A DNA stretch of 64,000 nucleotides from Ginglymostoma cirratum (Eukaryota), in contig JAHRHZ010000030.1 in NCBI GenBank assembly GCA_024137785.1, positions 7,568,288 to 7,632,287 of the forward strand. Direction: 5' to 3'. The notes under the pieces are model-generated. The model was not told the origin of the DNA. It did no database searches and saw nothing but the letters and a program-made list of their open reading frames with translations. Positions 16,397 to 56,140 of this stretch are shown here, piece by piece. The stretch's first letter is position 1, and every line of letters starts with the position of its first letter. The position numbers were made by a program, and so were the translations under genes.

Positions 16397-16408
16397 AAAA
16401 AACGTTAT

Positions 16409-20154: not shown

Positions 20155-20258
20155 TTCTGCAGAAGGGTCACTTGAGCCGAAATGTTAACTCTTGATTTCT
20201 CTTCACAGATGCTGCCAGACCTGCTAAGCTTTTCCAGCAATTTCTTTGTGTCTGAGAT
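20155..20258 (+). mobile_element. Short PLE terminus (family 2) starting at a degenerate hammerhead
   Basis: gttctgcagaagggtcacttgagccgaaatgttaactc...cacagatgctgccagacctgctaagcttttccagc. Confidence 0.8.
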
Positions 20259-20284
20259 TACTTAGTTTACTCACAGGTTTATGG

Positions 20285-20790
20285 GCTTTATATTAGCATA
20301 GTACAGGCATAGTTCACTAGGATGATGCACAGTATGGAGGGATTGTGTGATGAGTGAATGCTGAGTAGGTGGAATTCATACTCAATGGAGTTTAAAAAAT
20401 GAGAGGTGATCTCATTGAAACATATAGGATTCATAAGGGGCTTGACAGGGTAAATGCTACAAAGATGTTGCCCCTCATGGGAGAGTCTAGGACCAGAAGG
20501 CAAAGTCTCAGGATAAAGGGAGCCAATTTAAGACTGTGATGACAAGGAATTTCTTCTTTGAGGGTTTAAATTCTTTGGAACTCCTTGCCAACCAAAGCTT
20601 TGGAGGTAGAATTCTTGTGTATATTTAAGGCTGAGATAGCTGGATTCTTGATCAGTAGGGGAATCGAGGATTACTGGGGAAAAAGCACAAAAGTAGACAT
20701 GACGGATATTGGATTATCCATGATCCTATTGAATGGTGGAGCAGGCTCAAAGGGCTGAACGACCTATTCCTATTTCTATTTCATATGGTC
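20285..20790 (+). mobile_element. CR1-like LINE 3' fragment
   Basis: gagaggtgatctcattgaaacatata (RGDLIETY) and 3' end tgaatggtggagcaggctcaaagggctgaa. Confidence 0.82.
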
Positions 20791-20999
20791 TAGAGACAGG
20801 AAAATCTTAGGAATTGATGTCAATTTTGAAGTCTTTGAAATGAAGGTCCATGGTTTTTCGTAAAACAGCTGAACTGGTGTGACTGAATCTTTGAGATAAG
20901 TTGGTGTTGAACATAGAAGTGAAAAAGAAAACTTGCTGTTTAAGCAAATCTCATGAAAAAGAAGTTTGACGACATTATAGTGTTTACGCTATGTACCGG

Positions 21000-21500
21000 T
21001 TGAAAATGCCTCACAGCCAATGAAATGACTGAGTGTATTCACTATTGTAAAAAAAAGAGTAACACGAGAAGTAATTCGGAAGCACAAAGCCTGACAACCA
21101 TTTGTGCCACTAATGACCAGATATTCTGTTTTTCTTGGTGTTGGTTGAGGAATAAATGTTGGTCAGGACACCAGGAGAATCCACCTGCTTTCCTTTAAAT
21201 GGTGCCAAGGGATCTTTTCTTTAGTGTAATTGACACATTGGTCTCAGTTTAAATTGTTTGAGAAATGACAACTTGCCAACAGTGCCTCACTTTGAATCCT
21301 CCACTGGAGAATAAGGGCAATTGTGTTTTCTGAAGAAGGGCCTAGGCACAAAACGTCAGCTTTCCTGCTCCTCTGATGCTGCTTGGCCTGCTGTGTTCAT
21401 CCAGCTCTACACCTTGTTATCTCAGGCAATTGTGTGTTCAAGTATGTGGAAAAGACTTGATCCTGTAACTTGATGACCTTGACAAGGGCACTACCAATTT
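21000..21500 (-). mobile_element. Old Deu-domain SINE hosting a short PLE insert (boundaries approximate)
   Basis: Reverse complement of the Deu core (ggtcaggacaccaggagaa...ggtgccaagggatctttt) with a degenerate head at the right end. Confidence 0.55.
21327..21424 (+). mobile_element. Short PLE terminus (family 1), solo, starting at the hammerhead 5' edge
   Basis: tttctgaagaagggcctaggcacaaaacgtcagc...accttgttatctc; TSD ggcaattgtgt 21316-21326 / 21425-21435. Confidence 0.9.
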
Positions 21501-23683
21501 GCTACAGTATACATATTTAGTTGTATACTACTAATCTTGTATTGAGTGCACACTGTTGATAAATATTGCTGCAGTTCTCCTACTTAGACATGATGTCAAC
21601 ATTTATCATTGAATAGGAAATGCTGATTAAGAAATTTACGATATGAAGAGTTTTAATATAATTCCAAGCTCCTGCCAGTTCCACAGAGTGAGTTTTTGAA
21701 GTTTCTCTGCCAACGTTGTTGCCATCTTTTATGTCAAATATTCAGTCTTCAACCAGCTACAGAAAAAACTGGGCAACTTTCCGTTTAAGTTTTGATTAAA
21801 ATTAAACGTCCTTCCAAGGTAGATGAAATCACTGTTTACCATGTGATTTTATTGTGATTTAGTGCACTGCAAACTTGCCTGTAGAATTTTTACTTTTGCA
21901 TCCTTGTCCGGTTTGCTTTATGGATTTCACACTCACTATATTTTTCCCCACAATTGCTTGCTGTTGTTTGCTCTTATATAGCTGCCCTCTACTGTTTTAG
22001 GGCTGTCTTATTTGCTTTGTCATTTGTCCAGGTTCAATTTACACATTTTTAGCGCTGTTGCATACACTCATTCATTTATCCTTGCTGCTCATGATGTGCT
22101 TATGGTGTCTGAATTGTATAATTTATATAGTTATGACTTCTACTCCTGCTAAATATTTCCTCCTTTCTGATATGTTGAGAGACAGGTCAGCCCATTGTAA
22201 TGTTTAATGCCTTTTTATTCTGGTGTTAATAGATAATCCAAATATGTTTGCACTTGAATGGCTGTAATACTCTTCATTGACTCTTGAGCGCTATTTTTGT
22301 ATTTCTGCTTATGATAATATAAGAAAAGATTAAAACTCAGCTCTGTTAATTGTGCATTTTTATAATGTTCCAGTAAGGTGACTCATTTCTATTGGTTAGG
22401 CAGTAGTGTATTGTCATTTTGATTAAGTTCTTCTCTATACATTTATGTAGCAAGTAATTTGGTTAGGAAGTAACATTTGACTTTGTCCATTCTGCCAAAC
22501 AGTCAATGGTGAATAAATAACATATTTTACTCCATCTGTTTCTATTTTCCAATTAGAAGGATGTAGATTGGACTTCCAATTCACTATTGCCTGTCTTGCA
22601 TGACTGTTGAAACCCACTTTTGCCCCCTTTTTGTTTCTACAGGTGCAAGACCTTTTGATAAATGCTTTGCTCTTCACTAATTTTCTAAAAAAAACTATGC
22701 CGTAGTGGGAAGAATTTTTATCCAATAATTAATTCATAGGAAATACCATTGTGATATGTGGCAACAAAAGTATTAAACTGATGTTTTCTTTGGTTGATGT
22801 ATCAAATTATAGAGGTTGTCATATAGTTCTGCAGGGTGTTGGTGAGACTACATTGGGAGTACTGAGTGTGTTTTGATTTCCTTTATTTGAAAAAAATATA
22901 TACTTGCTTTTGAAGCAGCTCTGGAGGTGACAGAGTCGTCTGAGGTATACTGTTGGTGTTTCAAAGAGCGGAAGGTGACCTTACCAAAACAGATAAGATT
23001 TTGAGATTGGATTTGTGGTTCCCTGGAGGATGTTTCCATTTGTGTGGAGACTAAAACTAGGGTGCATAGTTCAAACTTAAGATGTCTCTTTTTAAGGCAG
23101 ATTTGACGTGCAAGTAAATTATCTCAAGGGTTGTGAATATGTGCCCAGAAGGTAGAGAATCTTCAAATTTCTCAAGGCTCAGTTTGTTAGATTTTGATCT
23201 AAGGAAATCAAAGGTTGTGGAGTGCAGACAAGAAAGCGGAACTGAGAGCACAACCAGTTCAGCAATCATCTTGAATAAAAGTGGAGAATAGTGGTGAAAC
23301 TCAGCAGTTCTGGTAGTATCTGTGGAGAGAAAAACAGAGTTAATGTTTTGAGTCTTTAGAACTACTGAATGTGGAGTAGGCTCAAAGGGTCAAATGTCCT
23401 ACTCTTTTTGTAAATCCTAAATTCCTATGGATATTATCTGGATCTAATGGAGATGCTTTAAATTGTGTTTTTAATTATGTGATGTATCAATATAAAATGC
23501 CTTAGGAGGAATTAGCCACCTTGGCTAGTTTCTATCTACCATTATTTCCTGGGGGAGTGGAGAAAACTTGTCTGGAATAAAGTTTTACTTGAGTTGCGAA
23601 ATTCTACTAATCAGATGTTTACTAGTTCCAAAATTACATATGTATTTGTTTCATTGTAATGATGAATACCTCTTGTTTTGCAG

Positions 23684-23770
23684 GTATGTCTTCTCTGAGC
23701 AGCCAATTTGCCAAAATTCCAAAGGGATTGAAGCATTTAAACATGTCTAAAACCTCTTTGTCACCTAAAG
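23684..23770 (+). CDS. CARMIL1: CARMIL1 coding exon F (87 nt, phase 1-1): (G)[28 protein letters not shown](G)
   Basis: Acceptor tcttgttttgcag, donor gtatga; LRR motif LKHLNMSKT. Confidence 0.95.
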
Positions 23771-25504
23771 GTATGATAATTTTATTTACTTGTTCATTCC
23801 ATTGGAATAAAGGGAAAGTTGTGTTAAGGATCTGACTGCAATGGAAATGAATATCAAGAGGAATGCAGAGGATGCTGCTGATTTGTTATTGACATACACT
23901 ATTGCGATGTCAAAGTAAACACTATGAAGGCCATTCGGCCCATTGTGTGTATAAATATTTGAGAGAGCAACATAAAACTGAACCCTGCTTTCTTCCACAA
24001 AGGTCAATATCTTCCACTATTTCAAATGTTTCCCCTGTTTTCATTTAGAAAATACAATTTTGTGTACATCATCAATTTGATGTGATATATTTCATGGCGC
24101 AACAGTTGTCCGTAAAGCCAAATTCAAAATCATCTCTAGTCTCTGCAGAATAGTGGATTCAAAATCTTGATAGCATCTCATTGAGTTTGTGCTGTACCTG
24201 GGCTACCAAAATGGCAAGCACTCATCTAACTATGGCTCAACTGTCGCTTTGTGTACATTTATCGTATCTGTAGTCTCTGCCTTATTTATAAAGGCTAAAG
24301 TGCTGAGGGCTTTTCTTTTCGTAACTTGACCTATTTGCATTTATGCTTTCAATGGATTATGCATCTTCCCTGTATGTTTGTACCACTTCATATGCTTCAA
24401 CATTCCTTTTTGAGTATATGCCCTGAATTCTTGTTTTTACTCCTAAGTATTGTAAACTGCAGTAACTTGGTTGCATGAATCATGTATATGTCAATTTGAT
24501 TAACAATTCTAATCTCATTTATTTGCCAAAGATTTCAGGGTATTTCTTGTTTTTGTATAAAAAACTGCAATTTCGTTCAGATTTCTTTTCTGCAATAAGT
24601 GTTTTCTGTATCCACAGAAAATGCAGTTTTCATTCAAACTGATCTTTAAGATTTATTGCTTCTTGTAAGTGTGCACCTGAATCTCTCCATTAAGAGGATG
24701 TAACTGTTACAATCCAAGAGAGCTTTCTGTTGTTTAAAGTCCTATTTTTCTCATTCTTGGAATGTAGATGAAACTGGCAACACTACATTTATTGTCCATT
24801 CCTGGTTGCCCTGAGAAGGAAAGTATGTTACTGACCTGTTGAAATCCTTGCAGGGATATTGTTTCCATAATGATGATGGGCACAGAACTGCAGGAATTTG
24901 ACCCAGGAATTGTTACTGAATGGCAATACATGTTCAAGTCAGGATATTGTGATACTTGGACAAGAGCTTGCAAAATGTGATGTTCCCATGAAGTTGCTGC
25001 TCTTGTCTTATGATATAAGGCATTTGGTCTGAAAAGGTTAGCTGAGGAACATTTTTATATGGCTCAACTCACTGATATTTCAGTGAAAGCCAGTCAGTCT
25101 GCTTCAATTTGCAGTTAGACTAGAGTCTAATCATGTAGTGTAAACTATCTTGTAGGAGATAATTACCTTGCAAGGTAAGTAATGTCGTTTAGTCTTAGTC
25201 TTTACTGTAACTTTCTATCTTATGACTATATAATAAAAGAATGTACCTCTTCTTGAATTTTTCATGTGGTTATCCTTCACCACTTTATGAGTAAGCCTTA
25301 GACTAGTACTAGAAGAGGGATTTATGACAGCTTTCTACCTAAGATATTTGTACATCTTTTTAAGATTAACATCTAGCAAAATTCCACCTTACAACAAGAT
25401 GCCAGCTGCAGGCATCTCTTAAAAGACTTCCCACTCCTGGGTCCAAGTGCAATTGTTGAGATAAATTTGGTGAGTTGCTGCAGTGCATGGTATGTACTAC
25501 AGCA

Positions 25505-26045
25505 TATTGTAGATATCAGTGAGGCCACTTTTGGAATATTGCATTCAATTCTAGCCTACCTGCTATAGGAAAGATGTTGCGAAACTTGAGAGGTTTCAGA
25601 AAAAGTTTAGAAGCGTGTTGCCGGGATTGGAGGGTTTGAGCTATGTGAATAGGCTGGGGCTTTTTTTCCCTGAAGCGTCAGAGGCTGAGGGGTGACCTTA
25701 TAGAGGTTTATAAAATGAGAGGCATGGATAGGGTGAATAGCCAGGGTCCTTTCCCCAGGATGGGGGAGTCCAAAACTAAACTGCATTGGTTTAATGTCAG
25801 AGGGAGAAGATTTAAAAGGGACTAGACTGCCAACTTTTTCACAGAGGGTGGTGCATGTGTGAAATGAGCTGGTAGAGGCTGGTACAATTACAACATTTAA
25901 AAGACATCTGGATGGGTCCGTGAATAGGAAAGGTTTAGCAGGATATGGGCCAAATGCTGGCAAATGGGACTAGATCAGTTTAGGATAGCTGGTCAGCGTG
26001 GACAAGTTGGACCGAAGGGTCTATTTTCATGCTGTACAACTCTAA
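25505..26045 (+). mobile_element. CR1/HER1-like LINE 3' fragment
   Basis: VRPLLEYCIQF-like start, ctgaggggtgaccttatagaggtttataaa (LRGDLIEVYK), tail ttggaccgaagggtctattt. Confidence 0.85.
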
Positions 26046-26189
26046 GTGTTGGTCAGTGGAGTGGATATTGAGATTAGTGATGGGTACCAAACATGTAGAT
26101 GATTATGTACTAGGTGAATACAGTTTACAACCAATTAAGGATTTTTGAATTGTTGGTATTGAGGGCAAACAAAGCTTCCAATTTTAACT

Positions 26190-26449
26190 GGGACAGTAGG
26201 AACGGCCAATGCTGGAGAATCTGAGACAACAAGGTGCAGAGCTGGATGAACCCAGCAGGCCAAGCAGCATCAGAGGAGCAGGAAAGCAGACGTTTCGGGT
26301 CTAGACCCNNNNNNNNNNNNNNNNNNNNNNNNNNNNNNNNNNNNNNNNNNNNNNNNNNNNNNNNNNNNNNNNNNNNNNNNNNNNNNNNNNNNNNNNNNNN
26401 NNNNNNNNCTGCTCGGCCCGCTGTGTTCATCCAGCTCGACACCTTGTTA
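26190..26449. mobile_element. PLE-derived fold-back (family 1), tail on the left arm, centre hidden by a 100-N gap (26309-26408)
   Basis: Inverted arms on either side of the gap; TSD ttccaattttaact 26176-26189 / 26450-26463. Confidence 0.88.
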
Positions 26450-29400
26450 TTCCAATTTTAACTCCTGATTTACATTCTTTACAAACCTTTTAGCTCATTC
26501 AAACCTTACCCTATCCCACATCAAGTCCTGCTCACACATCACCTGTACTTTTTGACTCAGAACTCAGTACCATACGTTTCAAATTCTTATCTTGTATTTA
26601 AATCTTCCCATGATCTTGCCCTTTCCCGCAATCCTTTCATACTGCATTTCTCGAACTTTAGTCTCAAATAGAAAGTAATCCTTCAGTCATGAAGGTTTGA
26701 TCATCTAGAATTCTCTCCTTAAATTTCATCTTTTATTTCCTTCTCTCTCCCCCTTTAGGATTATCCCTAAAACCCACGACTTGAACTTCATTTAATCGCT
26801 CCTCTTTATTGTTTCTGTAATCACATCTTTGTGGAAATCCTTTGGATATGGCTCAATGTTAAAGATTCACACCACCTTTAATGATTATACTTCCAGTTGC
26901 CTTTGTGTGATGCTGTAAGAATCCCCACGCCACCACTTCAAAATCTGTCTCTTCAACTCTATCTCCTTCTCTTTGACCAGGCTTATAGTTGGTCATTATT
27001 GGATTTCCTTCTTTGACTTTGGTCACCAACTTTATTTTTCTCTCATGCACCTCAGAAGTAGCTTAGAAAACTATTTTACATGAAACGTACTATACGGATG
27101 CAAGCTGTGTTGTTTTGAAAGAATGAGTGGCCTGAACTTGTATCGGGAAAAAGGAGCTCAATTTGGGCTGTTATCTCAGCTTAACGTGTCTTGTATTTAT
27201 TGTTAAAGCTTACTCTGTTTGTTTAGGAGTATTTTTCCTTCTTGGTAATTTATGGTTATTGAAGGATTAATTTCATGAAAAGCACTCCAGTGAAGGCTAA
27301 GAAGGAAAATATTGCAGTGGAAAATGCCCACGTTAAATGATAACGATGGCACAATAATGTGTTTGCAAATGATTCTACATCAAGATACAAATAACGTTTT
27401 AAATGTATTGTCAGAAAAACAGATTTGGTATGTCGGTTTCAAATTATTAGAATCTATCTTGAGTTTTTAAATTTGAGTTTAGACTTCCCAATGGTAGTGA
27501 GCATTTCTTTTAAAACATTTTGCCCATTGATCAACTTGGACATGTCACAATATCAAGTCAATCTTCAAAACGTGAAATGTCAGCCTTCTGATGCTGCCTA
27601 GCCTGCTGTATTCCTCCAGCTCCACACTTTGTTATTACTGTCTGTACCAGTGTGTTTGAAACACCCACATCATTAGTTCAGGGAGTGAGTTCACTAAGAA
27701 CTGATTAATTAGACAGTAGTAGAGTTTCTGCCATGAAACTACTAATAATAGACTCAACTATATATTTTGGGTTTTGTTTCAAGCTTTCTTTTAAAGGTAT
27801 TTTCCTATTGCATCAAGTCCTATTTCAGTAGCCTTGACTCCCACTTATGAGGCTGCAATCCAAAAATTAAATTGGTAGTGTTTGCAGTCAGGCAGACCCT
27901 GTTGTCTTGGCCTTTTGTTCTCTGTGAATTCACACAAGTTTACTTTTTGGTTAAAAACCTACGGAGAAGGACCACAAATATGAATCCAGCACCATGTGCA
28001 TCATATACAAACCGTTTTCTGAAACAAGGAATAATGGCAAAACTTAAACTAGTCAAAGCATAATGCTGCCTAGCCAGTGACACCCTCATCCCATTAATGA
28101 ATAAAAAAAATGACATGAACTTGTGACTTCACCAAGCTCTTGAAGGAGAACATTGTTGTAGGAGGACGAACAATGCGTGTTGTGTACTGAACACTAACAG
28201 CTTCCAGTTGTTATGCTGGAGTGTTTACTCTTCAGAAATTGCAGGGCTGAGATCATGGGGAAAAGTACATATTTATTTTGTCAAACCTAACACACAATAC
28301 CACTTTAAATTAGGATGCTGCATAATCTAATTAGTGCATAAATATGATGTACATAGAAATATTGGGCAGTTGTTTATGCCTCTTACACTGGCATGTAAAA
28401 ATTTTACAAATTTTAAGTAGGTAAATATATGGTACTTGCTTTAAGTTCTTGGCCAATGAACCACTTCACTGATTACTATGATTTATTATGATTTTTGCTT
28501 TGAAAGGTCTGGAACATGTACAAATATCTTTATACATTTTATGTATGATCATTAATAATTACAATGAGAATAGGAATTTATAATAGCACCTTTAATGTAA
28601 ACGAGTCCAAAAGTGTTAGAAATTAAGCAATCCAAGTGGACAAATTGACAAAGAAAGGGAGACTGGTAAAGATTTAAGAGATGAGGATCAAGGAATATGC
28701 CGGGTATACTGAATATGACTTTGTCAATGTTTCTATCCCAATTTCATTGTCAAGCACTTATCAACCTGACATGCTGATGCTGATCGCAGGGGTAGTCTTG
28801 GCAGCCAAGAAAAATCCCACAACACCGTAGAAATTAGATTTACATGAAAATGTGAAGCATATATTTAAATCATGAAAAATTTAATCTTGAAATGTTTCTT
28901 TATCTAGCAATAATTTGATAATGGTTTGATTTAAATTGTATTACGTTGGTTGTGACAAATCTAATGCAAACACTGTATGTTTATTGCTGAATGGTTGCAT
29001 GCTCAAAAGTTTAACTTGTATACTTTGGTTATGAGGGTGTGAAAATTAATTTCAGAATTTGCTGCCTTGCCCTGTTCCCAACTGAGGTCCTTTAGTGACC
29101 ACTCAAGGGCCTAACCCTGCTGGGGGACAATTCTTTCCATTCCAGATAGGCATATACATTCTCATCTTATCCAACTGGGTAAACCAGTGCAGCCAGGCTT
29201 GCGAGGTAGTGGGTTTGGCCCTTATTCTGCACTAATCTGTGTCTAATTAAGAACCCCCTAATAGCCATGTTCTGCCCTTCCCTCCCCAAGTAACCATTGC
29301 CCCATGAAGCCCTCCTAACAACATTTTTTTTCTATAGGTAGTTATCCATCCTGGCAGTCCAGGAATATTGTATTAGAACAAGCTACAGCCTCTGATTAGG

Positions 29401-29570
29401 CAGCAGTTCTTGGTGGCTGGGACTACTTGTCCCAGGCCTGTCTTCTAGTAGAAAGCCCTGCAGTACCAGTCAGCTGTTTGATTGCCATAAGGCCTGTGGT
29501 GCCCCCATTTTGGGACTTCAGTCTTGGTGAGATGTTCTCGGTAACTTGAGTCTGACAGAGAATTTGCTTA

Positions 29571-30110
29571 CAAAANNNNNNNNNNNNNNNNNNNNNNNNN
29601 NNNNNNNNNNNNNNNNNNNNNNNNNNNNNNNNNNNNNNNNNNNNNNNNNNNNNNNNNNNNNNNNNNNNNNNNNNNNNNNNNNNNNNNNNNNNNNNNNNNN
29701 NNNNNNNNNNNNNNNNNNNNNNNNNNNNNNNNNNNNNNNNNNNNNNNNNNNNNNNNNNNNNNNNNNNNNNNNNNNNNNNNNNNNNNNNNNNNNNNNNNNN
29801 NNNNNNNNNNNNNNNNNNNNNNNNNNNNNNNNNNNNNNNNNNNNNNNNNNNNNNNNNNNNNNNNNNNNNNNNNNNNNNNNNNNNNNNNNNNNNNNNNNNN
29901 NNNNNNNNNNNNNNNNNNNNNNNNNNNNNNNNNNNNNNNNNNNNNNNNNNNNNNNNNNNNNNNNNNNNNNNNNNNTCTGAGGAATGGTCACCGGACCCGA
30001 AATGTTAACTCTGTTTTCTCCTCCACAGATGCTGCCAGACCTGAGCTTTTCCAGCAACTTTGTTTTTGTTCCTGATTTACAGCATCCACAGTTCTTTTTG
30101 GTTTTTATTT
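29571..30110 (+). mobile_element. PLE family 2 insertion, probably fold-back, mostly a 400-N gap (29576-29975)
   Basis: Right arm tctgaggaatggtcaccggacccgaaatgttaactc...gtttttattt; caaaa before the gap fits the start of an inverted arm; TSD agagaatttgctta 29557-29570 / 30111-30124. Confidence 0.82.
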
Positions 30111-30158
30111 AGAGAATTTGCTTAACTGTTTACTTTGTGTACTCTGCGTTCATTATAG

Positions 30159-30262
30159 GAGTGAATAGCCTTGCCCAATCATTGAGTGCCAACCAACAAA
30201 TTCCTAACTCGCTCACACATCTTGACCTCTCAGGGAACTTCCTCCGAGGAGATGACCTATCG
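30159..30262 (+). CDS. CARMIL1: CARMIL1 coding exon G (104 nt, phase 1-0): (G)[34 protein letters not shown]
   Basis: Acceptor ttcattatag, donor gtatgt; LRR motif LTHLDLSGN. Confidence 0.95.
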
Positions 30263-35239: not shown

Positions 35240-35890
35240 TATTCATTCATGGATTGTGGGATTCACTGGCTGGGCCAGCATTGATTGCCCATCTCTATCT
35301 GCCCTTGACAAAGTGGTGGCAAACCACCTTGAACCGCTGCAGTTCATTTGGCATGGAAGCATTCACAGTGTTGCTAGGGAGAGAGTGCAAAGATTTTGAC
35401 TGACACTGAAGTAATATATTTCCAAGTCAGAATGGTGAGGTGGCTTGGAGGGGAACTTGTAGATGAGGATTGTATGTGTCTGTTACCCTTGTCTTTCCAG
35501 ATAGTAGTGATCATGGATTTGGAAGGTACTGCCTAAGGAAAATTCTGCAGTGCATTTTGTGGATTGTACACTTTGCTACTGTGCTTCAGAGCTAGAGGGA
35601 ATGAATATTTCTTTATGTTGTGCCAATGAAATGGACTACTTTGTCCTGGAAGGTATCAAGCTTCTTGAGTGTTGTTGCAGCTGAACTCATTCAAACAAGT
35701 GGGGAGTATTTCATTTCACTGATGACTTGTGTCTTGTCGATGGTGGATAAGCCTGGGGAAATCAGGAGAGGAGTTACTTGCTGCAGGATTTCTAGTCTCT
35801 GACTTGCTCTTGTAGCAACAGTACTTGCAGGGATATTCCAGTTTGTTCCTGGTCAGTAGGAACTCCAAAAATATTGGTAGTGGGATTTTG
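35240..35890 (-). mobile_element. CR1-group LINE 3' fragment (family ending ccacatcccatgaatgaataaa); related pieces at ~8965-9270, 24740-25050 and 62075-62380
   Basis: Shared sequence tttattcattcatgg...ggctgggccagcatt...gcccttga...gggaattccaggattttgacc. Confidence 0.72.
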
Positions 35891-38397: not shown

Positions 38398-38699
38398 CAT
38401 AGAATCCCTACAGTGTAGAAACAGGCCCTTCAGCTCAACAAGCCCGCACTGACCGTCAGAGCATCCCACCTCGACCCATCCCCTACAACCCACCTAATCT
38501 ACACATCCCTGAACAATACGGGCAATTTAGTGTAGCCAATCCACTTAGCCTGCACATCTTTGTTCTGTGGGAGGAAACCCAAGCAGATACGGAGAGAATG
38601 TGCAAACTCCACAAAGACAGTTGCCTGAGGGTGGAATCGATCTTGAATCCCCACTGCTGTGAGGCAGCAGTGCTAACCACTGAGCCACCGTGCCAGCCC
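38398..38699 (-). mobile_element. HE1-like V-SINE
   Basis: Reverse complement of head ggcacggtggctcagtggttagcactgctgcctcacagc, V domain and tail; TSD aatttattt 38381-38389 / 38705-38713. Confidence 0.9.
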
Positions 38700-39130: not shown

Positions 39131-39340
39131 TGTACTTTGCTATTCTCACATTCATAAAATGTTTGTAGTATACAAGTATTAGTCTGTGATGCTGACACAA
39201 GCAGGAAGTGGAAATGCAACAAACTGAGCAAAGAAAGCCCCACAGGGAGATGGAAGTATGACCTGTAGTCAGTGTTGCTGGGAAGCAATCAGGGCAGAGT
39301 GCTTCCAGTTGGCATCACAGTGGTGACTAGAAAGAGTGGC

Positions 39341-39518
39341 AAAATCATAAATTGCTGGAAAAATTCGACAGGTCTGATAGCATCTGTGCAGAGAAAGTAG
39401 AGTTAACATTTCAGGTCCAGTTACCCTACTTCAGAACCAGTTCTGAAGTTTTTCCAACAATTTATGATTTTATTTGATTTTGAGTATCCACAGTTCTTTG
39501 GGTTTTTTGGGGTTTCTG
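39341..39518. mobile_element. PLE-derived fold-back (family 2), older, with internal deletion of the right arm
   Basis: Centre cttcagaac-ca-gttctgaag; ends aaaatcataaattg / caatttatgatttt; TSD gaaagagtggc 39330-39340 / 39519-39529. Confidence 0.82.
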
Positions 39519-41169: not shown

Positions 41170-41410
41170 CTCCTTCAATTCCTCCCACTTCCTACAGACA
41201 AAGCGGGTGGCCGTGGGTACCCGCATGGGCCAAAGCTATGCCTGCCTCTTTGTAGGATACGTGGAACAATCCCTCTTCTGAAGCTACACTGGCCCTATCC
41301 CCCACCTCTTGCATTTCTGAAGAAGGGTCTAGATTCGAAACGTCAGCTTTTCTGCTCCTCTGATGCTGCTTGGCCCGCTGTGTTCATCCAGCTCTACACC
41401 TTGTTAGCTC
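41170..41410 (+). mobile_element. Internally deleted PLE (family 1): RT motif fragment fused to the hammerhead terminus
   Basis: ~41174-41310 matches ~2205-2341 of the long element, then jumps to catttctgaagaaggg (~3841); TSD ctctgtatatct 41158-41169 / 41408-41419. Confidence 0.88.
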
Positions 41411-45705: not shown

Positions 45706-45846
45706 AATAAAAACCGAAAGAACTGCGGATGATGTAAATCAGGAACAAAAACAGAGTTTCCTGCATAAGCTCAGCAGGTCTGGCAGCAACTGTGAAGAAA
45801 ACAATGGAGTTAACATTTTGGGTCCGGTGATCCTTCCTCAGAACTC
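45706..45846 (-). mobile_element. Short PLE terminus (family 2) with tail, ending at hammerhead stem I
   Basis: Minus strand gagtt-ctgagga-aggatcaccggaccc-aaaa-tgtt-aactc; 5-bp stem I GAGUU/AACUC; GAAA box mutated. Confidence 0.85.
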
Positions 45847-46874
45847 AGGAATATTGGAACATGGCTTTCAGAATTAGTTACTGTTTTGAAGTTCTGATTT
45901 TACCTAGATAAAATATGGGCCAAAAGTCTATTTAATTCCAACGAATTCTCTCTTTTTCTAAATCCTTCTCACCCCTGTGTAGGAAAAAGTGAACACCGGC
46001 CAGGATAGGGGCTAAGGTGGGTTGGTTTGGGGTTTGTGAAATTGCATGTCATGACCAGTGTACACCATGCCTGTTGCCAATTCATCTCAACTGGTATTTT
46101 GCTAGTGATAGAGTACATATCAGGCTCCATGCCCACCTTTTAGGCCAGTTGAGGCCCTTGAGTGAATAATTCACATCCTCCTTTTGGTAACTGTTGGCAA
46201 TTTGCCAATGATGTATCATGCCTAAACGATGTGTCAAGGCCACCAGATAAATCATATGCATAACACACGACCCATTATTGCAACACAGACTTGCACAACC
46301 TCACGTTCTGAATGCGGCTACCCAACCCTCTTTCTCACCTTAGCACAGCTGTCCTGATATGTCTTAGAATCTAGCCTCTATTACCCTTCTCTGCGTTGGG
46401 AAATAATTCTGCACTGATAAATAGCCACGCTGGCAGTGATGCTGCTGAGACTGGAACGCTGGTAGCCATCTAATTAGCCAGCAGTTCTGGTAGGTGAGAC
46501 ATTCTCCCATTTGGGGTGGAATCTGTGACAGTTAACATCCTAATTACCATAAAATCTGGGGTTGACTTCTTGGCTATCTGGCCTGGCGGCCACAACACTG
46601 GCTCAGCCATCCCTTGGAGAAGTAGAGCAATGCTATCTAAAATTTCAGCTGTAGTTTTGGAAAAATTTCTTCATTCTCAAAGGGCTTTTGGTTGATTTGC
46701 ATTCCTGTAGAGCTCTTTAGAATATCTTACCACATTAATGGTGGTATCATCGCAAGTTGTTAATATATGAATATGAAACAGCGATACAATTGACATGTAA
46801 TTTATAACAACATCATGAAATTTACCAGTGTACAGCCTTTCTTAATCCATGTACAGTTTTGCTTTTCTTTTAGT

Positions 46875-46955
46875 CTCTGTCTCTCTCTCTGTCTGTCTCT
46901 CGTTCCCGCTCCCCCTCTCTCTGTCTCTCTCTCCCGCTCCCTCGCTCTCGTGCTC
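46875..46955. repeat. Degenerate (CT)n microsatellite
   Basis: Directly visible. Confidence 0.7.
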
Positions 46956-47319
46956 TTTACAGTTAAGTACACCGTATCCTCTGATTACAGTCCCTTCCTA
47001 CATTTCACATTTTTGATCTGTGTTCACTTGTTAGTTCTATTTTAAGGCTCCATCTTGTATTTATTTCTGTAGCTACAGGTGGCATAGAGAGAGACACCAT
47101 TGGTGATGTCCAGATGGGAGAAAGTGCATTGATGTCTAAATTAGTAACTAGGCAAGACTGCCATTTAAGGACCTTGAGTGACTGGGCGTGAGGAGGATCC
47201 ATCTTTATGGATTTGAAATTACAGGATCTGTGATTTGACTGAAGTACATTCGTATAGCGTATGCATCAGGGCTTTCACTAACTAGATGTTTGGCTGGACA
47301 CTAATCTGCCCACCAATTT

Positions 47320-48360
47320 GATTGATTTGACTTATTATCACATGTACCTAAGTACAGTGAAAACCTCGTTTGCGAGCACTACAGCAATGACAAACAGGTC
47401 ACAGGATGATGAAAAACATTTGGACAGGACATGTTCTATGCAAGATCAACCTTTAACGGGATCAGCTTTATTTGAAGTTAGAGAGTCCAATCATCAGTCT
47501 AATAATGGCAGGGAAGAAGCTGTTATTGAACCTGCTGGTGTGCATTCAAGCCTCTGTATCTTCTGCCTGAGGGAATAGTTTGTTGGAGAGCATTACCAGG
47601 GTGGGATGGGATTTGATGATGGCAGCCTTTCCACAAGATGTGTATTTGGAGACCATGGATGGGAGATTGGCCTCTGATGGCCTGGGCTGTGCACACAACC
47701 TCCTGTAGTTTCTTACGGTCCTCAGCAGAACAGTTGCTGTACCAGGCCACATGTGCCCAGACAGTGTGCTTTCTGTGGTGCATCTGTAAAAGTTGGTGAA
47801 GGTCCATAAGTACATGCCAAGTTTCCTGAGCTGCCTGAAGAGGATGAGGCTTTGTCATGCCTTCTTGACTGTCACATCTACATGGGAAGCCCAGGACAGC
47901 TTGTCGGATATGGTCACTCCTAAGAACTTGACCCTCTTAACACACTCAACCTCTGCTCCGTTGATGTAGAAGGGGATGTGTTCTCCACCTTTCTGGAGTC
48001 AATGATCAGTTCTTTGGTTTTGCCAACATTGAGAGAGATGTTATTATCATTGCACCTCATCACCAAGCCCTCTATCTCCTTTCTGTGTTCTGACTCATCG
48101 TTGTTTGATATCTGTCTTACCATGGTGGTGTCGTCAGCAAACTTGTAGATGGCATTTGTTCAGAATTTGGCAGTGCAGTCATGGGTGAACAGGGGGTACA
48201 GTGGGGGCTGAGATTACATCCTTGGGTGGCTCCAGTATTGTGTTACCATGGAGGAAGTGCAGTTGTCAATCTTTACTGATTGCGGTCTATGGATTAGGAA
48301 GCCGAGGATCCAGTTGCAGAGGGTAGAACTGCGATCTAGGTCTGAGTTTTGAGATCAGTC
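47320..48360 (-). mobile_element. Rex1/Babar-like LINE 3' fragment
   Basis: Minus strand YKFADDTTMV, CNDNNISLNVGKTKELIIDSRK, FYRCTTESTLSG and AWYSNCSAEDRKKLQEVV. Confidence 0.85.
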
Positions 48361-49719
48361 TCTAGTTACCTTAGAGTAAGCAGCCAAATGCCCTTTTAAT
48401 GAAGGTATACAAACTTGATAGCCTTGGAAAACCCACCATCCATTAATAGCTGAACATATTCTGCAATTTGAGGACTAGATGCTAGAGCCTTTAATGAAGG
48501 ACCAACTGCAGTTGCGCTCATAGTATTCTTACCTCCCTGTGCTCCAGAGTAAATCAATGTTTTATTGTAATATGACATCAAATCTTAGTGAAATCCTGTT
48601 TAGCACAAGGTCTCATTGGACATTTCTTTTGTTCTGCTGAAATGCCTAACTGATTTCATGGTTTTTGGCACCTTTGCATTATTTCGCCTGTTTAAAGGGA
48701 GTTAAATCCATGGGAAATTGTACTCGAAAAGACTACAGTGAGGGTTCACAGGCAGTGCCTGTATACCCATCAGAATTGCCTGATGGAAAATCATAGGCTG
48801 TGTACCAGCAATTTCTGACCATTATTCTCTGTCAGTGCTACTCCCTGCTGAAAGCCCAGAGGGTGGAATTTATTCCGTTGTTAGGAGCTATTCATGGTAG
48901 TGTAGCCTAAAGTATAAACACTTTAGGAAGGAATGGAACATGTACTTTTTTTTGCACTTTTGTCAACAGCAGATTGGTTTCTCAGTAGATATGAAAGTCA
49001 TGCAAGCTGAAGATTGAATCCAGGTGAACAGGACTTTTTATGTTGATTGTGCTATATATTACAATAAAAACAGAAAAATATTTGAAATTATTAGGTCTGG
49101 CAACACCTGCAGAGAAGGAAAGAAGAAGTTAACATTTTCTGTTTAATAACCTGTAACCAGATCTGTTGAGTATTTCCAAAATTTTTCTTTATTTCAAATT
49201 CATGACCTTTTGCTTTTCAGTGTAATCGTGCAAGTTGTATACTGTTAAAATAGAAGTCTCCATTCATTCCAACTTCTTTTTTTTTCCCTTTCAACCATGT
49301 TGGATCTATAAGCACTATTACTCCGTTATTCTCAGCTTGAAGGTTGACACATTGAGCTCTCTTCTTGAACTTGCAGGCCCTGTGTTAGACCCAAAAGCTC
49401 TCAGGGAGAGAATTCCAGGATTGCATTTGACCACTTAAAGACCTCAGTTGACCCAAGGGTGGATGAAGTGATGGATGCCCCCCCCCCACCACATTTGTAA
49501 TTGTGAAGGTGACAAGGGCTGTAGATTTGACTTTAACAATAAGGCTCGAAGTTTATTTACCCTAAAACGAAGATAAGAGAATAAAACTAGGCTATTTACT
49601 TATGACGCAATTGTTAAGATTTCAAAACACCTAAATAAAATCCAATCTATCTCAAAGCAATACTTTCCAGTACTCAACTATCAGAGATTTCCCTATCACA
49701 TCGACAGGTTTGCCTTACC

Positions 49720-51075
49720 GGTTTGGTCTTGAACATTTTATAGCCTTTTCCTTTTTGAAAAAGTGACTAAGAAGATAAAACAGTGGTGGTAGACGTTGTC
49801 TACACGGACTTTAGCAAGGCCTTCGACACGGTTCCGCATGGTAGACTGGTTAGATCAGTTTAATCGAGGGAGGGCTAGCCAATTGGATACAAAATTGGCA
49901 TGATGGTAGGAGACCAAAGGGTAGTGGTGACGGAGTTGAGGCCCATGACCAGTGGTGTGTGACAAGGATTGGTGCTGAGTCCATTGTTGTTCATCATTTA
50001 TGTAAATGGTTTGGATGAGAATATAGGAGGCATGATTAGTAAGTTTATGAATGACAGCAAAATTGGTAGTATAGTGGACAGTGAAGAAGGTTAAACACTG
50101 AAAGAATGCGGATGCTGCAAATCAGGGACAAAAAGAGAAATTGCTGGAAAAGCTCAGGGGTCTGGCAGCATCTGTAGAGAGAAATCAGAGTTAGTGTCTC
50201 AGTTCGAGTGACCCGTCCTCAGAACTGCAGAAGAAGGTAATCTGGGAGTACAGCAGGATCTTGATCAACTGGGCCAGTGGGTGAGGAATGGCAGATCGAG
50301 TTTATTTCCGATAAATGCAAGGTGTTGCATTTTTGCAAGACAAACCAGACCAGTATTTACACAGTTAATGCTAGGGCCTTAGAGAGTGTTGTCGAGCAGA
50401 GAGACCTAGGGCTACAGGTACATAGTTCCTTGAAAGTGGCTTCACAGGAAGATAGGGTGGTGAAGATGGTGTTTGGCACACTTGCCTTCATCAGAGCATT
50501 GAATACAGGGTTTGGGATGTCATGTTACTGCTGTACATAGCACTGGTAAGGCCACATTTGGAGTACTGCGTACAATTCTGATCCCTCTGTTGCAGAAAGG
50601 ATGTTATTAAACTGGAAAGGGTGCATAAACAGTCTAAGATATTACCGAGACTGGAAGGTTTGAGTTATAAGGAGAGCTGGATAGGCTGGGACTTTTTTTC
50701 CTTGGAGTGTAGCAGGGTGTGACCCGATAGAGATTAAAATTATGAGGGGGCATAGCAAAGGTCTTTTCCCCAGGGTAGGGGAGTCAGAAACTGAAGTGCA
50801 TGGGTTTAAGGTGAGAGGAAACATTTAGTACGGACCTGAAAGGCAACTTTTTGATGCAGAGGATGATGCATACATGGAACAAGCTGCCAGAGGAAGTAGT
50901 GGGGGCGGATACAATTACAACATTTAAAAGGCATCTGGATGGGTACATTGATAGGAAGGGTTTAAAGAGATATGAGTCAATGCAGGAAAATGGGACATGT
51001 TCAGTTTAGGATATCTGGCTGGCATGAGCAAGTTGGCAAAAGGAGCTGTTTCCCTGCTGTATGACTCTGTGACTC
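49720..51075 (+). mobile_element. CR1/HER1-like LINE RT and 3' end, with a nested PLE terminus
   Basis: VVYTDFSKAFDTVPHGRL, ISKFMNDSKIG, WQIEFISDKCKVLHF, LVRPHLEYCVQF; tail tttccctgctgtatgactctgtgactct. Confidence 0.9.
50092..50229 (-). mobile_element. Short PLE terminus (family 2) with tail, nested in CR1 RT
   Basis: Ends at cctcagaact (hammerhead 5' edge); flanked by direct repeat gaagaaggt. Confidence 0.85.
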
Positions 51076-51619
51076 TCGTCACATGACTGAGTTTAAACTT
51101 CATTTGCTTCACATAACCACCGCAGGTTTCAAATCAATTGCTTTTGGTCTGGAATTTTCATACTAAATCCCTTACATGAAAGTAACCTATTTTCTGACTG
51201 TTCTGAACTAACTCCTTTCTCCAGGTGAAACTGTTCTTGCATCTAAACTCAACTAAATCTTCTGAAACCAAAAATTTTTAATCTATGGGTTTTACTCCTA
51301 AGCAACAAAAATTGAGTCTTTTAAAACCAAAGTGAGCTAAAATGTTTGAAGAAATAAGCATTGAAAACATTACTGCTGCAAACAAATACCCATTATCACT
51401 CTAGTGGCTGTTCTGCCTCACGTGCAGGTTTAAAAAATTATGGCTGTAGAAAGACTGACAAGTTCATTTTTAAATCACCTCGCACACATGGACAAAAACC
51501 TACTTGCCACTGGTTCAAAATTCAAACTCAATAAAAAGTAATATATAATTTACTTTAGAGATAACAGACTTTGCATCATAAAGCTGTGATTGACTCTGCT
51601 TCCACCATACTATTGGGTA

Positions 51620-52310
51620 GTGCTTTCCATATCCCAACTACTCCTCAAGCTTTCCTTCTGTTGCCTTCACTACTTTTGCTATTCATTGCAGTAGTTCCTC
51701 AGGATAGTGTTGTAAGCCCAACTTTCAGTGCTTTGTCAAAAACCTTCCCTTTATCATAAGATAAGAAATGGGAATATTCGCTGATGATTACAGAGTTCTC
51801 AGCACCATTCAAATCTCCTCAGATACTGAAGTAGCCTGTATCCAAATGTACTGGATGGACAGTTTTGGGCTGAAAGATGGCAAGTAGCATTCACACGATA
51901 GACATGCCAGGCAATGACCATCTCCTGCAAGAGAAAATCTAATCCTAACCCTTTTGACATTCAGTGGCATCAACATCAATGAATCCTCCACTGCTGACAT
52001 CTTTGGGGGTTACAATTTACCAGAAACTGAACTACACTAGCTATATACATAAATTGGCTATAACATCAAGTCGGAATCTTGGAATGCTGCAGCGGGTAAC
52101 TCTTCACATGAATGCCCAGATCTATCCATAATCTATCAGACAGAAGCCAGGAGTGTGGCAGAATTCCCCTTCCTTCGGAACTCCCTTCCTAACAACCCAG
52201 TAGATATGTGTACTCCTGAAGGATTGCAGCAGTTTAAGAAGGCCACTATCATCATCTCATAGTAATTACAGTTTAATGCTGAATTTGCCCACATCGCATG
52301 AATGAATGAA
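51620..52310 (+). mobile_element. CR1-group LINE RT/3' fragment
   Basis: gttcctcaggatagtgttgtaagccca (VPQDSVVSP, cf. VPQGSVLGP), IFADD at ~51775, 3' end cccacatcgcatgaatgaatgaa. Confidence 0.75.
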
Positions 52311-52880
52311 ATGGACCTTATATTCTGTTTTTTGGGTCTTGACGCTGCTATAATTGGAACAGTTTTTCATGATCTATTCTGTCAAAGTCCCTCATTCTTG
52401 TTATTTTCAATATGTACCTCCTTGTCTCAATCACCTCATCAAAAGAGAAAATATCCAGTTTTGCAATTCTTGCCCCTTCCCCCCCCCCCCCACCAACTGC
52501 TTCTTTCTCTTCGTCATTAAAGCCCCTTTGACTTTTGTCTGCATCTTTTTCTCATGCTTTCACTTCCTTCATTAAAGTACGGTGCAGATAATAATTGATA
52601 CATTTTCCCCTTAAAATGAATAACTTCACAGCTTGCTGCATTAACTTGCACCTGCCACATGATTGCCCATTCTATCAACTGTACTGTCGACTTTAGGTCG
52701 GTCTTTAGCCTCCATACAGTTGACAGTATTTCCAAGTTTTTTTTTTGTCAACCACAAATTTCTAAATTGTGCCCATGCACCCAAATTAAAGTTATCAATT
52801 TTTATCAATGCGGACCAATACCAGTCCTTGGAAATCTGGACTGTATATCTTCATCTGTCTGAAAAAAAGCCATTCATCAC

Positions 52881-53009
52881 AGAGGTAGTAGGAACGGCCG
52901 ATGCTGGAGAATCTGAGATAACACGGTGGGGAGCTGGATGAACACAGCAGGCCAAGCAGCGTCAGAGGAGCAGGAAAGCTGACGTTTCGGGTCAAGACCC
53001 TTCTTCAAG
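52881..53009 (-). mobile_element. Short PLE terminus (family 1) with tail, ending at the hammerhead core
   Basis: Minus strand ttgaagaagggtcttgacccgaaacgtcagctttcctgctcc... Confidence 0.88.
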
Positions 53010-53489
53010 TTCACAGGCCTCGATTTCCTGTGATGCTGCCAAGTTTGTCTTCAATCTGCTGTTGTCGCTGTCAATTTCATTCCATGTTCTTCAGTTTTGC
53101 TTGCAACCAATTATGGGGCATGTTTTTAAGCACTCTTCGGAAATCTATGTACACCACATCTGCTAAGCCTCCTAAACAGACTGTTATTATGTCAAAAGAC
53201 TGAATCAAATTAGTTAAACATGATTGTCTTTAACTGATTAGCTGAAGAGCATTAATCAAATGGAACCAAGAGTTGGCCATTCTACGCGTTCTTGTAATAT
53301 CATACACCTACCTTGGGCCCTTCTCCCTAAAAGTCCTTTGCTGTGGAAAACCTTGCTAGATCCACTCTAATAAATTCCTTCCAAAGACCTCAGTCAAATC
53401 ACTGTTTGACTTTCTGTTCTCCCTGGTTTACAAGCCTGGTTTATTTTAGCTGTCTTCACTATTTACTGTCTTTTTTCATAGCAACAGCC

Positions 53490-53730
53490 TGGGGAATCTG
53501 CTCTGCTTGGCTGTCAGTTAGTTCAGTTGGCTGAACTGCTGGTTTATAGTACACAGTGATGCCAATAGCATTGGTCCAATTTCTGTAAAAACTGAAGTGA
53601 CCATGAAAGTCATACCTTCTTGACCTCGCTCCTTGCCTGAAACATGGTGACCCTCAGATTAAAACATCAGCAGTCATTTCTCTGTAATGAGAGAGCAGCC
53701 TGTGGTCCTCAGGGACTGTTATGACTTTTG
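53490..53730 (+). mobile_element. Old tRNA-derived SINE
   Basis: Head gttagttcagttggctg...gtgatgccaatagcattggtccaatttc, body ggtgaccctcagattaaa...aatgagagagcagcctgtggtcctc. Confidence 0.6.
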
Positions 53731-54820
53731 CTATTATTTCTAAGGTGTAGTGTCCGGAATATTACCAAGTAATTCTGATATGATCTAACAAGTGCTTAGT
53801 TAGATTTCTGTTTCCTTTTTCATATTCTGGTTCACTTGTGATAAAGACTAATGTTGCATTAGCCTTCTTGTTTGTTTTATGTCCCAGACTAATGAATTTC
53901 AGTGGTCTGTATGTGGACTCCAAAATCTCTCTTCTAGATTTTCACTATTTGAAAATTACTGGAGCCATCCTTTTCTGTCCAAAATGGATGAACTCGTACC
54001 TTACTGACATCTAGCATGATTTTGCGCACTCGTTTAGTTTGTAAATGTCTCTGCAATTTTTTTTTTAAAACCATCTGCATTACATTTGCTTTAACACACT
54101 TGGATAAATGTTACCTAAATCAATACAGTTCAGCTTGGGGTCATTGAAAATATTTCAAACATTCCAGCAGAAGTCACGTTCGAGCTGGCTGTGCCCCTGC
54201 CCTACCACCTCTTATGACTGTAAGAGATTATATTTTTTGTTTGAAATGTGAACCGAACATGGAAAAAAAAAATGGGCCTGGCATTAAAAGGGGGAAAATA
54301 CAAGGATATGTTTGCAGCTTTGCCTCATATGCACCAGTTAGCTCCAGTGTCAGTTTTGCGGACAGCATGCCCAGACAAAGTGGCATTTCCTTGTGTTCAG
54401 GGCATGTCTGTCCAGATTTTGATTGGCATCGGTTATGTGCTCCGGACAGTTCAGCGTAGTAAAATCCTTCTGATTAGTTTGGCTGTAGTTTAGCATAAAC
54501 TCTGTAAAGGGGAATGAAAACATCAGAATACTGAGGGGTCCAGCTGCTTGCAACATCAACACCTATCTCTTTGTTCACTTGCAATGAAAATTTGCCTTCA
54601 TTAACTCTGAAAACAGCAAGGGAAAAACTACTTTGAATTGCTAAAGAAAAATCCAAAAACCCAAAGGAAAAAGACCGTAAGTCCAACAAAACAAGCAGCA
54701 AATTAAAGACTGATCATTGCTGTGTGGATAATATCAAAACATCATCGAAGAATCAAAAGGAATGTGAAACCAACTAATTTAGTTTTGGCATTTTGAACTG
54801 GTGAAATAGAACTCAATACC

Positions 54821-54915
54821 TTTCTGAAGAAGGGTCCAGACCAGAAACATCAGCTTTCTTGTTCCTCTGATGCTGCTTGGCCTGCTGTGTTCATCCAGCC
54901 CTACACCTTGTTATG
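54821..54915 (+). mobile_element. Short PLE terminus (family 1), solo, starting at the hammerhead 5' edge
   Basis: tttctgaagaagggtccagaccagaaacatcagc...accttgttat; short flanking repeat tcaata. Confidence 0.87.
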
Positions 54916-55387
54916 TCAATATTTGTGTTAGGTTTTTGTATGGCTGGGAATATTTAGAAGGGGTAAATTTGAAGTCATTTTGATGAGAAATCCTGTTATT
55001 TCATTCTTGTTTAACTTGAGAGTGTTAGAATAAATATCTACTTTTCACGTAACTAAATAAAATCTAGTATGGTTTGCTTTTATCTTGAGTAGCAGTCAGT
55101 CGGGGCAAATTAGGACTGTTAGTAGTTTCATTAAATCTTAAGGTTTGTTATAACGTTGGGAATTGTAGGGCTTGATTTCCAGTATACAACCTCAACAGGT
55201 CGTGAAAATGTTTAGGGGCTCTTCCAGGATAAATTGGAACAAGGACGGTATAAGTTTGGGTACAGTGTTGGTGTAAGTAATAGAGGATAAAGGGACAAGC
55301 ACCAACTTTTGCAATAGAAATAAAATGACATTGGAAGTCGCAGAGTCCTTTCTGCAGATGGAATTTGGGAGGCACTAGCCTAATTGT

Positions 55388-56140
55388 ATTAAAAACTGAA
55401 AGAACTGCAGATGCTGTAAATCAGGAACAAAAACAGAAGTTGTTGGAAGCTCAGCAGGTCTGGCAGCATCCCTGATGAAAAATTCATTGTTAATGTTTCA
55501 GGTCTGGTGACCCTTCCTCAGAACTGATGGTAGCTGGGAAATCGTTGGTTTATAAGCTGAAAATAGGGAGGGGGTTGGGGTAGAGAGTAAACAATAGGAT
55601 AAGGGACAGAGCCTGAAGAGGAAAGAGCAGTTGGATAGACAAAGGAGTTGATAACGATCTGGCTAGGAGCGTGAATAGCTGTTAATGGGGACTGTTAGTG
55701 ACAAACAATAGGTATTGTGTAATGGCAGGCGATGTGATAGCGAGGCCTGGTGTGTGGGATAGGGGGCTAGGACATGGGAGACTTTAGGCCCTAAAGTTAT
55801 TGAACTCTATATTGAGTCCGGAGGACTGCAGGGTCCCCAAGCAGAAAATGAGGTGGTGTTTTTCCAGCTTGCATTTGAGGTTCACTGGAACATTTCAGCA
55901 AGCCAGAGACAGAGATAAAAACACGGAACAAAAACAAAGTTTCTGGAAAAGCTCAGCAGGTCTGGCAGCATTTGTGAAGGAGAAAACAGAGTTAACGTTT
56001 CCTTCCTCAGTGACCCTTCCTCAGAATCTCTGAGACAGAGATGTTTTCTGGGGAGCAGGGTGGTGTGTTAAAGTGGCAGGCAACTGGAAGCTTGGTCTTT
56101 TTTGCGAGCAGAACGTAGATGTTCTGTAAAGTGGTCACCC
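55388..56140 (-). mobile_element. Longer PLE family 2 fragment (GIY-YIG C-terminus, 3' UTR, hammerhead, tail) with a nested short family 2 copy at 55917-56031
   Basis: Minus strand KLPVACHFNTPPCS...KLEKHHLIFCLGTLQSSGLNIEFNNF; hammerhead ctgaggaagggtcaccagacctgaaacatt; nested copy has TSD gagacagagat 55906-55916 / 56032-56042. Confidence 0.87.

Follow-up and report, generated by a model that had tools for sequence, protein, structure and literature searches.

Relationship to described Penelope-like elements

Penelope-like elements (PLEs) of the endonuclease-positive (EN+) Neptune clade encode a reverse transcriptase (RT), a Cys-rich linker, and, at the C terminus, a GIY-YIG endonuclease, and their pseudo-long terminal repeats (pLTRs) carry a hammerhead ribozyme (PMC8557442, PMC3846280). 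Their insertions are heavily truncated at the 5' end and show an adjacent inverted copy, a tail of 30–40 bp at one end, and target-site duplications (TSDs). The same features are seen in two repeat families with a CUGANGA box, families 1 and 2, which occur in a 64,000-nt stretch (the window) of the 4.36-Gb genome of Ginglymostoma cirratum (contig JAHRHZ010000030.1). Many copies of both families begin at the 5' edge of the hammerhead, and we propose that this edge is likely to be the 5' end of the element's RNA. A fixed 5' breakpoint is not reported in the accessible parts of the two Neptune-clade accounts. Positions are numbered from C3 of the CUGANGA box, which is taken as 0, with negative numbers upstream, and "edge" denotes -8 to +5.

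The minimal type-I hammerheads of metazoan PLEs resemble those found here in the CUGANGA and GAAA boxes, the bulged base before stem II, the short stem I, and the palindromic helix III (PMC4209133). Most of these metazoan motifs are single, as truncated PLEs. That report proposes cleavage and circular templates; in the copies described here, by contrast, the ribozyme is still uncut, and breakpoints form no clear peak where it would be cut. Reverse transcription by the anole Poseidon element PAc in vitro has two fixed internal start points close to the RNA's 5' part, both DNA strands are cut and extended, and RNA with an uncut ribozyme serves as the template, all of which is similar to the behavior suggested below (PMC11167929). 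However, PAc belongs to another clade, and its open reading frame (ORF) begins inside the ribozyme, whereas that of family 1 begins near +160; its main text does not map the 5' ends of genomic copies or the RNA start. Non-LTR retrozymes are also short, noncoding, hammerhead bearing, and related to pLTRs, but they form head-to-tail tandem arrays and lineages of their own, unlike the solo or head-to-head copies in this study, which have no lineage of their own (10.64898/2026.07.22.740005). Penelope of D. virilis carries an internal promoter as well as an intron ending at helix I (PMC2377424), and a pair of TATA- and initiator-like motifs has been noted in a rotifer pLTR (PMC3846280).

The insertion architecture is thus already known for PLEs, and in PLE papers the formation of pLTRs, the inverted copies, the one-sided tails, and the role of the ribozyme are treated as open questions. 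The promoter and cap reading was not found in print: a search that reached little of the subscription literature, and neither Repbase nor some supplements, found no paper on a 5' breakpoint peak at the ribozyme edge, its interpretation as an RNA start, or counts of long and short arm pairing.

Coding part, ribozyme, and tail of the two families

Judged by their architecture, both families are EN+ PLEs with Neptune-type features. The RT motifs QxxGxxMG and YIDD and a GIY-YIG/CCHH endonuclease end are present in the translations of the long copies in the window and of 60 genomic long copies, and translations of both families contain a Zn-finger-like CxxxxCxxC linker between RT and endonuclease. 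Downstream of the endonuclease follow a pyrimidine-rich 3' untranslated region (UTR), the minimal hammerhead, and the tail. A partial tandem or pLTR, an inverted 5' copy, a tail at one end, and TSDs are all present. The 3' ends of the copies are bimodal, at +93 to +98 and at +127 to +133. An ORF start was also looked for in family 2 but was not found.

Support from Pfam is weak because the reading frames are broken. The inverted partner of the long family-1 copy at 1064–3975 gave a GIY-YIG match below the cut-off (E 0.042), and the RT domain was not matched by the broken coding pieces. The core boxes, stem II, short stem I, and palindromic helix III of a minimal type-I hammerhead were read from the sequence; the ribozyme was not matched as a hammerhead in an Rfam search, and the lowest-energy predicted fold of the region is not the hammerhead. 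The long family-1 copy is also interrupted at 2970–3075 by a CT-rich array of 12-bp tandem units with a gap of 10 N.

Breakpoints at the ribozyme edge

A sequence-only reading of the window had placed the 5' boundaries of ten short copies, fold-backs, and junctions close to the CUGANGA box. All ten were confirmed, at -5 to +1, and TSDs of 11–16 bp were found at six of them (the units at 16400, 39437, and 41171–41410, and the copies at 21327, 50226, and 56026); a search at 20155, 45846, 53008, and 54821 found none.

For genome-wide counts, 160 stretches of 10 kb were sampled, 100 at round coordinates on contigs with prior matches and 60 placed about 10–35 kb from matches; 33 were entirely N, which left 1,249,218 readable bases. 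A second set consisted of 58 loci selected solely by 64 nt of the tail. Main counts required a tail identity of at least 85% and no N at the junction, and other copies were excluded; in event counts (136 for family 1 and 88 for family 2), each fold-back was scored once. In the random set, 51 of 129 family-1 copies and 49 of 75 family-2 copies start at the edge, with the mode at -3. The corresponding numbers are 33/61 and 27/46 in the tail-selected set, and 59/143 and 72/132 in the random set with the identity filter off, so that approximately 40–65% of the copies begin at the edge across the two families. Counted as events, the edge accounts for 67/136 in family 1 and 65/88 in family 2. The per-base stop rate at the edge is 0.055 in family 1 (84 of 151 at risk) and 0.093 in family 2 (76 of 88), 6–40 times higher than in all other bins (0.001–0.009), and a uniform stop rate is rejected with p ~1e-35 and ~1e-33, respectively. 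The flat distribution that random 5' truncation should leave was therefore not seen. All 39 family-2 fold-back arms that reach +5 stop at the edge, with none extending past it. The distribution is hard on the left and ragged on the right, which suggests the end of a template. Extrapolation gives about 2e5 edge copies per family in the genome.

The same boundary appears in four public runs (three organism labels), where the most abundant loose ends with unrelated flanks lie at -2 to -6, with the maximum at -3 in each run. The loose ends at -2, -3, and -4 number 249, 410, and 320 in X2, 338, 545, and 459 in X13, and 40, 58, and 51 in X17; in X1, there are 56 at -2, 85 at -3, 65 at -5, and 47 at -6. 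Contigs guessed to be RNA have the same loose ends as DNA and are uninformative on the RNA start.

The edge marks insertion boundaries, as TSDs flank 19/39 and 17/40 solo edge copies, compared with about 1% for mispaired flanks. Loss of alignability in the upstream UTR was rejected as its source: long copies mutated down to 73–76% identity gave false edges in 0/1216 and 0/299 cases, and the upstream flanks of edge copies are not more pyrimidine-rich or UTR-like than the downstream flanks. Products of hammerhead self-cleavage, expected to end at +28/+30, were also rejected, in line with the sequence-only reading; starts at +27 to +33 make up only 3/136 and 2/88 events, without a clear peak.

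The boundary is not confined to short copies. Among 39 copies selected solely for the ORF start, 17 end before +5 and 22 reach it; of the latter, nine stop at -2 to -5, three stop at -14, -32, and -75, and 10 continue into the pLTR. Because nine of these 22 ORF-bearing copies stop at -2 to -5, the boundary also belongs to the ORF-bearing template.

Two side observations concern the edge copies. The T run before CUGA has 4–9 T in 23 of 71 family-1 edge copies but exactly three T in 41 of 42 long copies; the extra T may come from slippage, added bases, or pairing with a T-rich target. N gaps frequently have young family-1 copies on both sides, facing each other head to head (L087, L061, L142, L143, L158, and L160; 26308/26409 and 56353/56754 in the window), and the youngest perfect fold-backs are therefore probably under-assembled and under-counted.

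Head-to-head copies and proposed twin priming

About half of the copies carry a head-to-head inverted partner. In 51 of 53 family-1 and 38 of 40 family-2 fold-backs (89/93), one arm has the long tail and the other has the short tail, although long and short tails are about equally frequent among solo copies (74:58 and 44:45). This pairing points to twin priming. TSDs, mostly of 14–17 bp, flank 57 of 74 fold-back units, and the arms diverge less within a unit than between units (0.068 versus 0.122 and 0.096 versus 0.140). Long arms are paired with long arms in 4/5 cases versus 0/38 (p = 4e-5). Both arms could be scored in 74 units, and the one with the greater 5' reach is the long-tail arm in 35 of these and the short-tail arm in another 35. 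A snap-back self-copy, which would make one arm a subset of the other, was rejected on this symmetry.

Two cDNAs, one per tail site, on a single RNA or an RNA pair fit these fold-backs. They agree with the behavior of the anole enzyme in vitro, which primes internally at two sites, cuts and extends both strands, is a predicted dimer, and uses uncut RNA (PMC11167929). Head-to-head palindromes have been explained by self-priming of an antisense template (PMC3846280); because the arms here are symmetric in their 5' reach and strictly paired long with short, twin priming fits better. In L1, twin priming likewise gives inverted insertions with discrete TSDs, but the L1 arms cover separate parts of the RNA, whereas the arms here overlap and start at two fixed sites (PMC11702581).

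Composites were also found, in which a 5' piece of the element (ribozyme, tail, and ORF start) is joined to a second copy (L182 2216–1474, L129 5628–6016, L061 5444–5079, and L050 8438–8796). These insertions are possible intermediates of pLTR formation.

Predicted RNA start

RNA polymerase II promoters are characterized by TATA and initiator consensus motifs, with the TATA box about 30 nt upstream of the start. In both families, an initiator-like YYANWYY has its A at -4, and the motif has five and six occurrences, respectively, per ~435 nt. Among 18 related groups of copies with a pyrimidine-rich upstream region, A(-4) is present in 13 and a perfect initiator-like motif in 11. A TATA-like 7-mer starts at -37 to -33 in nine of these groups (eight by the representative and one by the group consensus), and no other position has it in more than one group. 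In 11 of the 20 copies whose match to the element stops at A(-4), a G comes next (25% expected; p = 0.004, post hoc). The base beyond A(-4) is likewise most often G in all three public runs that list that end. Capped full-length L1 insertions carry an additional G corresponding to the RNA 5' end, the trace left by reverse transcription of the cap (PMC11702581). Based on these motifs in genomic copies, A(-4) is likely to be the RNA start under a TATA-plus-initiator promoter.

Several points weigh against this assignment and the model built on it. The RNA start was deduced from genomic copies. The commonest boundary is -3, not -4, and a loss of 1 nt must be assumed. Only a minority of copies retain A(-4) together with a preceding G. 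Furthermore, of the 44 copies in which A(-4) is retained, 24 extend the match to C(-5) or beyond, which is above chance, and the start is therefore heterogeneous or partly misplaced; some of the C(-5) matches stem from the partner arm. Perhaps 3–4 independent lineages underlie the 18 groups used for the TATA count, and three of these groups probably do not represent element UTR. Strand displacement would be needed to obtain two overlapping cDNAs from a single RNA. Finally, in D. virilis Penelope an intron separates the ribozyme from the start, which lies about 120 nt further upstream (PMC2377424, PMC4209133), and a start at the ribozyme edge is thus not universal.

At least four more, older PLE families with hammerheads have a matching spacing of TATA-like and initiator motifs (L061, L090, L099, L131, L236, L037, and L014).

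Proposed mechanism and alternatives

Here, we propose that the short copies are run-off products of ordinary copying that proceeds to the capped 5' end of the uncut transcript of the element itself, for which A(-4) is the predicted position, and we regard this as the likely explanation. A TATA-plus-initiator promoter in the upstream pLTR would start the RNA at A(-4) and place the ribozyme at the 5' terminus of the mRNA. The RT-binding tail would therefore lie near the RNA 5' end, where the enzyme would bind. RT would prime approximately 95 or 130 nt inside the uncut RNA and run off its 5' end. The short cDNA would then be joined to the target with a loss of 0–10 nt, giving solo or head-to-head insertions with TSDs. 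Long copies would result if RT started at the tail's 3' copy or used read-through RNA. Fold-backs would form when both cut strands are primed, one per tail site, on one RNA or an RNA pair, followed by head-to-head joining of both cDNAs. Because they are without a TATA box, the short copies would be dead on arrival.

Retroviral minus-strand strong-stop DNA is a short cDNA that runs off the 5' end of the RNA, like the proposed step. The present families differ in having neither a tRNA primer nor an integrase, and strand transfer is only proposed for them. [quoted passage not shown] A fuller version, which we hold to be doubtful, combines an mRNA started under the TATA box at the first base of the hammerhead, a dimeric enzyme that would prime both cut DNA strands at two fixed sites close to this 5' end, and a retrovirus-like strong-stop step. 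In it, the uncut ribozyme would pair RNAs through the palindromic helix III, and the cut 3' copy would leave a terminal repeat of about 31 nt for the strand transfer that regenerates pLTRs. The short copies, in their hundreds of thousands, would then be the remains of transfers that failed, mapping the cap site as fossils.

The alternative offered by the sequence-only reading, next to a trans-mobilized RNA, was that the hammerhead fold is a fixed stop or template-jump site for RT on a longer RNA; a bound protein could act in the same way. The boundary does match the 5' strand of stem I, where A-4 to U-1 of family 2 can pair with +30 to +33 as read from the sequence, and a few composites join another part of the element straight to the edge (41311 in the window, L182, and L129). 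However, a fold would be expected to halt RT on the 3' side; RT travels 3' to 5', encounters this fold at +30 to +35, and has unwound the ribozyme by -3, and the stop rate at +27 to +33 is about one-tenth of the edge value. Between -100 and -5, the RNA is predicted to be unstructured (0.0 and -2.3 kcal/mol). Template jumps are not enriched at the edge (4/187 edge copies, compared with 13/60 long and 5/104 inner copies), and the TATA spacing and the extra G are left unexplained. We consider this explanation weak and improbable.

Another explanation is that RNA processing, such as cleavage and polyadenylation with the AT-rich box as the poly(A) signal, makes a cut 3' of the CA at -5/-4, and that the template is the resulting 3' piece, which starts at -3. 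In both families the mode is indeed at -3, directly 3' of this CA, and U-rich sequence comes next. TATAAA and CATAAA are variants of the poly(A) signal. On the other hand, 44 copies retain A(-4) or more, neither AATAAA nor ATTAAA occupies the box in any of the groups listed (it is TATTTAT in family 1), the spacing of the box is tight, and the extra G precedes A(-4), making such a cut quite improbable. A cut of a DNA intermediate at the edge by the element endonuclease appears decidedly improbable. The anole enzyme prefers ATT near the junction of ORF and pLTR (PMC11167929), family 1 has ATTT at -4 to -1, and resolution by the endonuclease has been proposed for the tail (PMC8557442); nevertheless, family 2 has AGTT there, yet a sharper peak, and the more AT-rich box at -35 to -27 has few breakpoints.

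A separate nonautonomous master of about 100–140 nt, resembling a short interspersed element (SINE) or a retrozyme and copied in trans, would account for the very high copy number, the fixed ends, and the TSDs, and nonautonomous derivatives of PLEs exist (10.64898/2026.07.22.740005). However, no variable column divides short from long copies in family 1 or in family 2, where only 12 long copies were available. The three family-1 subfamilies all mix short and long copies (53/23, 21/20, and 19/8). A tree that forces 93 short family-1 copies together was rejected by the approximately unbiased (AU) test (p = 1.3e-4; 93 columns, quick tree). A count of changes along the tree (39 in family 1 and 11 in family 2), made with no shuffled control, does not enter the argument. 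ORF-bearing copies share the boundary, and the short copies have no predicted promoter and are solo or head to head, not in head-to-tail tandem. The separate master, which is highly improbable overall, is thus largely refuted for family 1. From the earlier suggestion of ribozyme-headed RNAs mobilized in trans as a SINE-like class, the ribozyme-headed RNA survives, as the likely transcript of the element itself, and the SINE-like class does not. Equally improbable is a splice acceptor at the boundary, for which the Penelope intron of D. virilis, ending at helix I, is a precedent (PMC4209133) and to which the CAG of family 2 at -5 to -3 would conform: family 1 has no AG at this place, no common upstream exon is seen between TSD and element, and the TSDs abut the edge.

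Should the boundary be the cap site, the promoter and the RNA 5' end could be located from genomic copies alone, uncut RNA would be the template in vivo, and twin priming would be favored over antisense self-priming. For annotation, the abundant repeats of 100–140 bp and their hairpins should not be filed as a SINE, miniature inverted-repeat transposable element (MITE), or microRNA family.

Features of the window

Table 1. PLE copies and predicted promoter motifs in the window (positions of the whole stretch)
Feature	Position	Strand	Remarks
Inverted partner arm of the copy at 1064–3975, short tail (+94)	333–1079	-	15-bp TSD (1 mismatch) flanks the whole 333–3975 unit
Long 5'-truncated family-1 PLE: broken RT, CxxxxCxxC, GIY-YIG, 3' UTR, hammerhead, long tail to +128	1064–3975	+	Translation motifs
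TATA-like box TATTTAT, predicted promoter element	3811–3817	+	31 nt upstream of A(-4)
Initiator-like YYANWYY; predicted RNA start is the A at 3842, bordering hammerhead stem I	3840–3846	+	
Family-1 head-to-head fold-back: arm 16399–16303 (-3 to +94), arm 16408–16538 (-1 to +130)	16303–16538	.	TSD 13–16 bp
Family-2 short copy, -3 to +88	20154–20245	+	TSD not found
Family-1 short copy, -3 to +94	21327–21423	+	TSD 11–15 bp
Family-1 copy, 5' end enters N gap; excluded from counts	26197–26308	-	
Family-2 copy, -1 to +133, adjoining N gap; excluded from counts	29976–30107	+	
Family-2-like fold-back: arm 39437–39340 (-3 to +95), partial arm 39447–39507 (aligned +70 to +132)	39340–39507	.	TSD 14 bp
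Composite: 140 nt RT-coding, single G at 41311, then family-1 short copy, -5 to +94	41171–41410	+	TSD 12–13 bp
Family-2 short copy, -4 to +133, G preceding A(-4)	45708–45845	-	TSD not found
Family-2 short copy, -5 to +133	50092–50227	-	TSD 11 bp
Family-1 short copy, +1 to +129	52880–53007	-	TSD not found
Family-1 short copy, -3 to +94	54821–54917	+	TSD not found
Long family-2 copy, about -500 to +133: endonuclease end, 3' UTR, hammerhead at 55521	55390–56146	-	Split by the short copy at 56026
Predicted TATA box TATAAA	55549–55554	-	29 nt upstream of A(-4) at 55525; initiator-like TCAGTTC at 55527–55521
Family-2 short copy, -2 to +99, nested in the long copy at 55390–56146; first box of the ribozyme tandemly duplicated	55925–56026	-	TSD 11–13 bp

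An Rfam search with the hairpin of the fold-back at 16400 (16350–16455) gave only microRNA precursor matches below the threshold. Hairpins of this kind may be misannotated as microRNAs or may supply double-stranded RNA. Other repeats in the window were assigned by eye. Those with a tRNA-like head at 17019–17244 and 38483–38694 are probably a true SINE, and the dispersed repeats at 25508–26043 and 50532–51068, and at 8969–9238, 35240–35523, and 62081–62375, are probably fragments of long interspersed elements.

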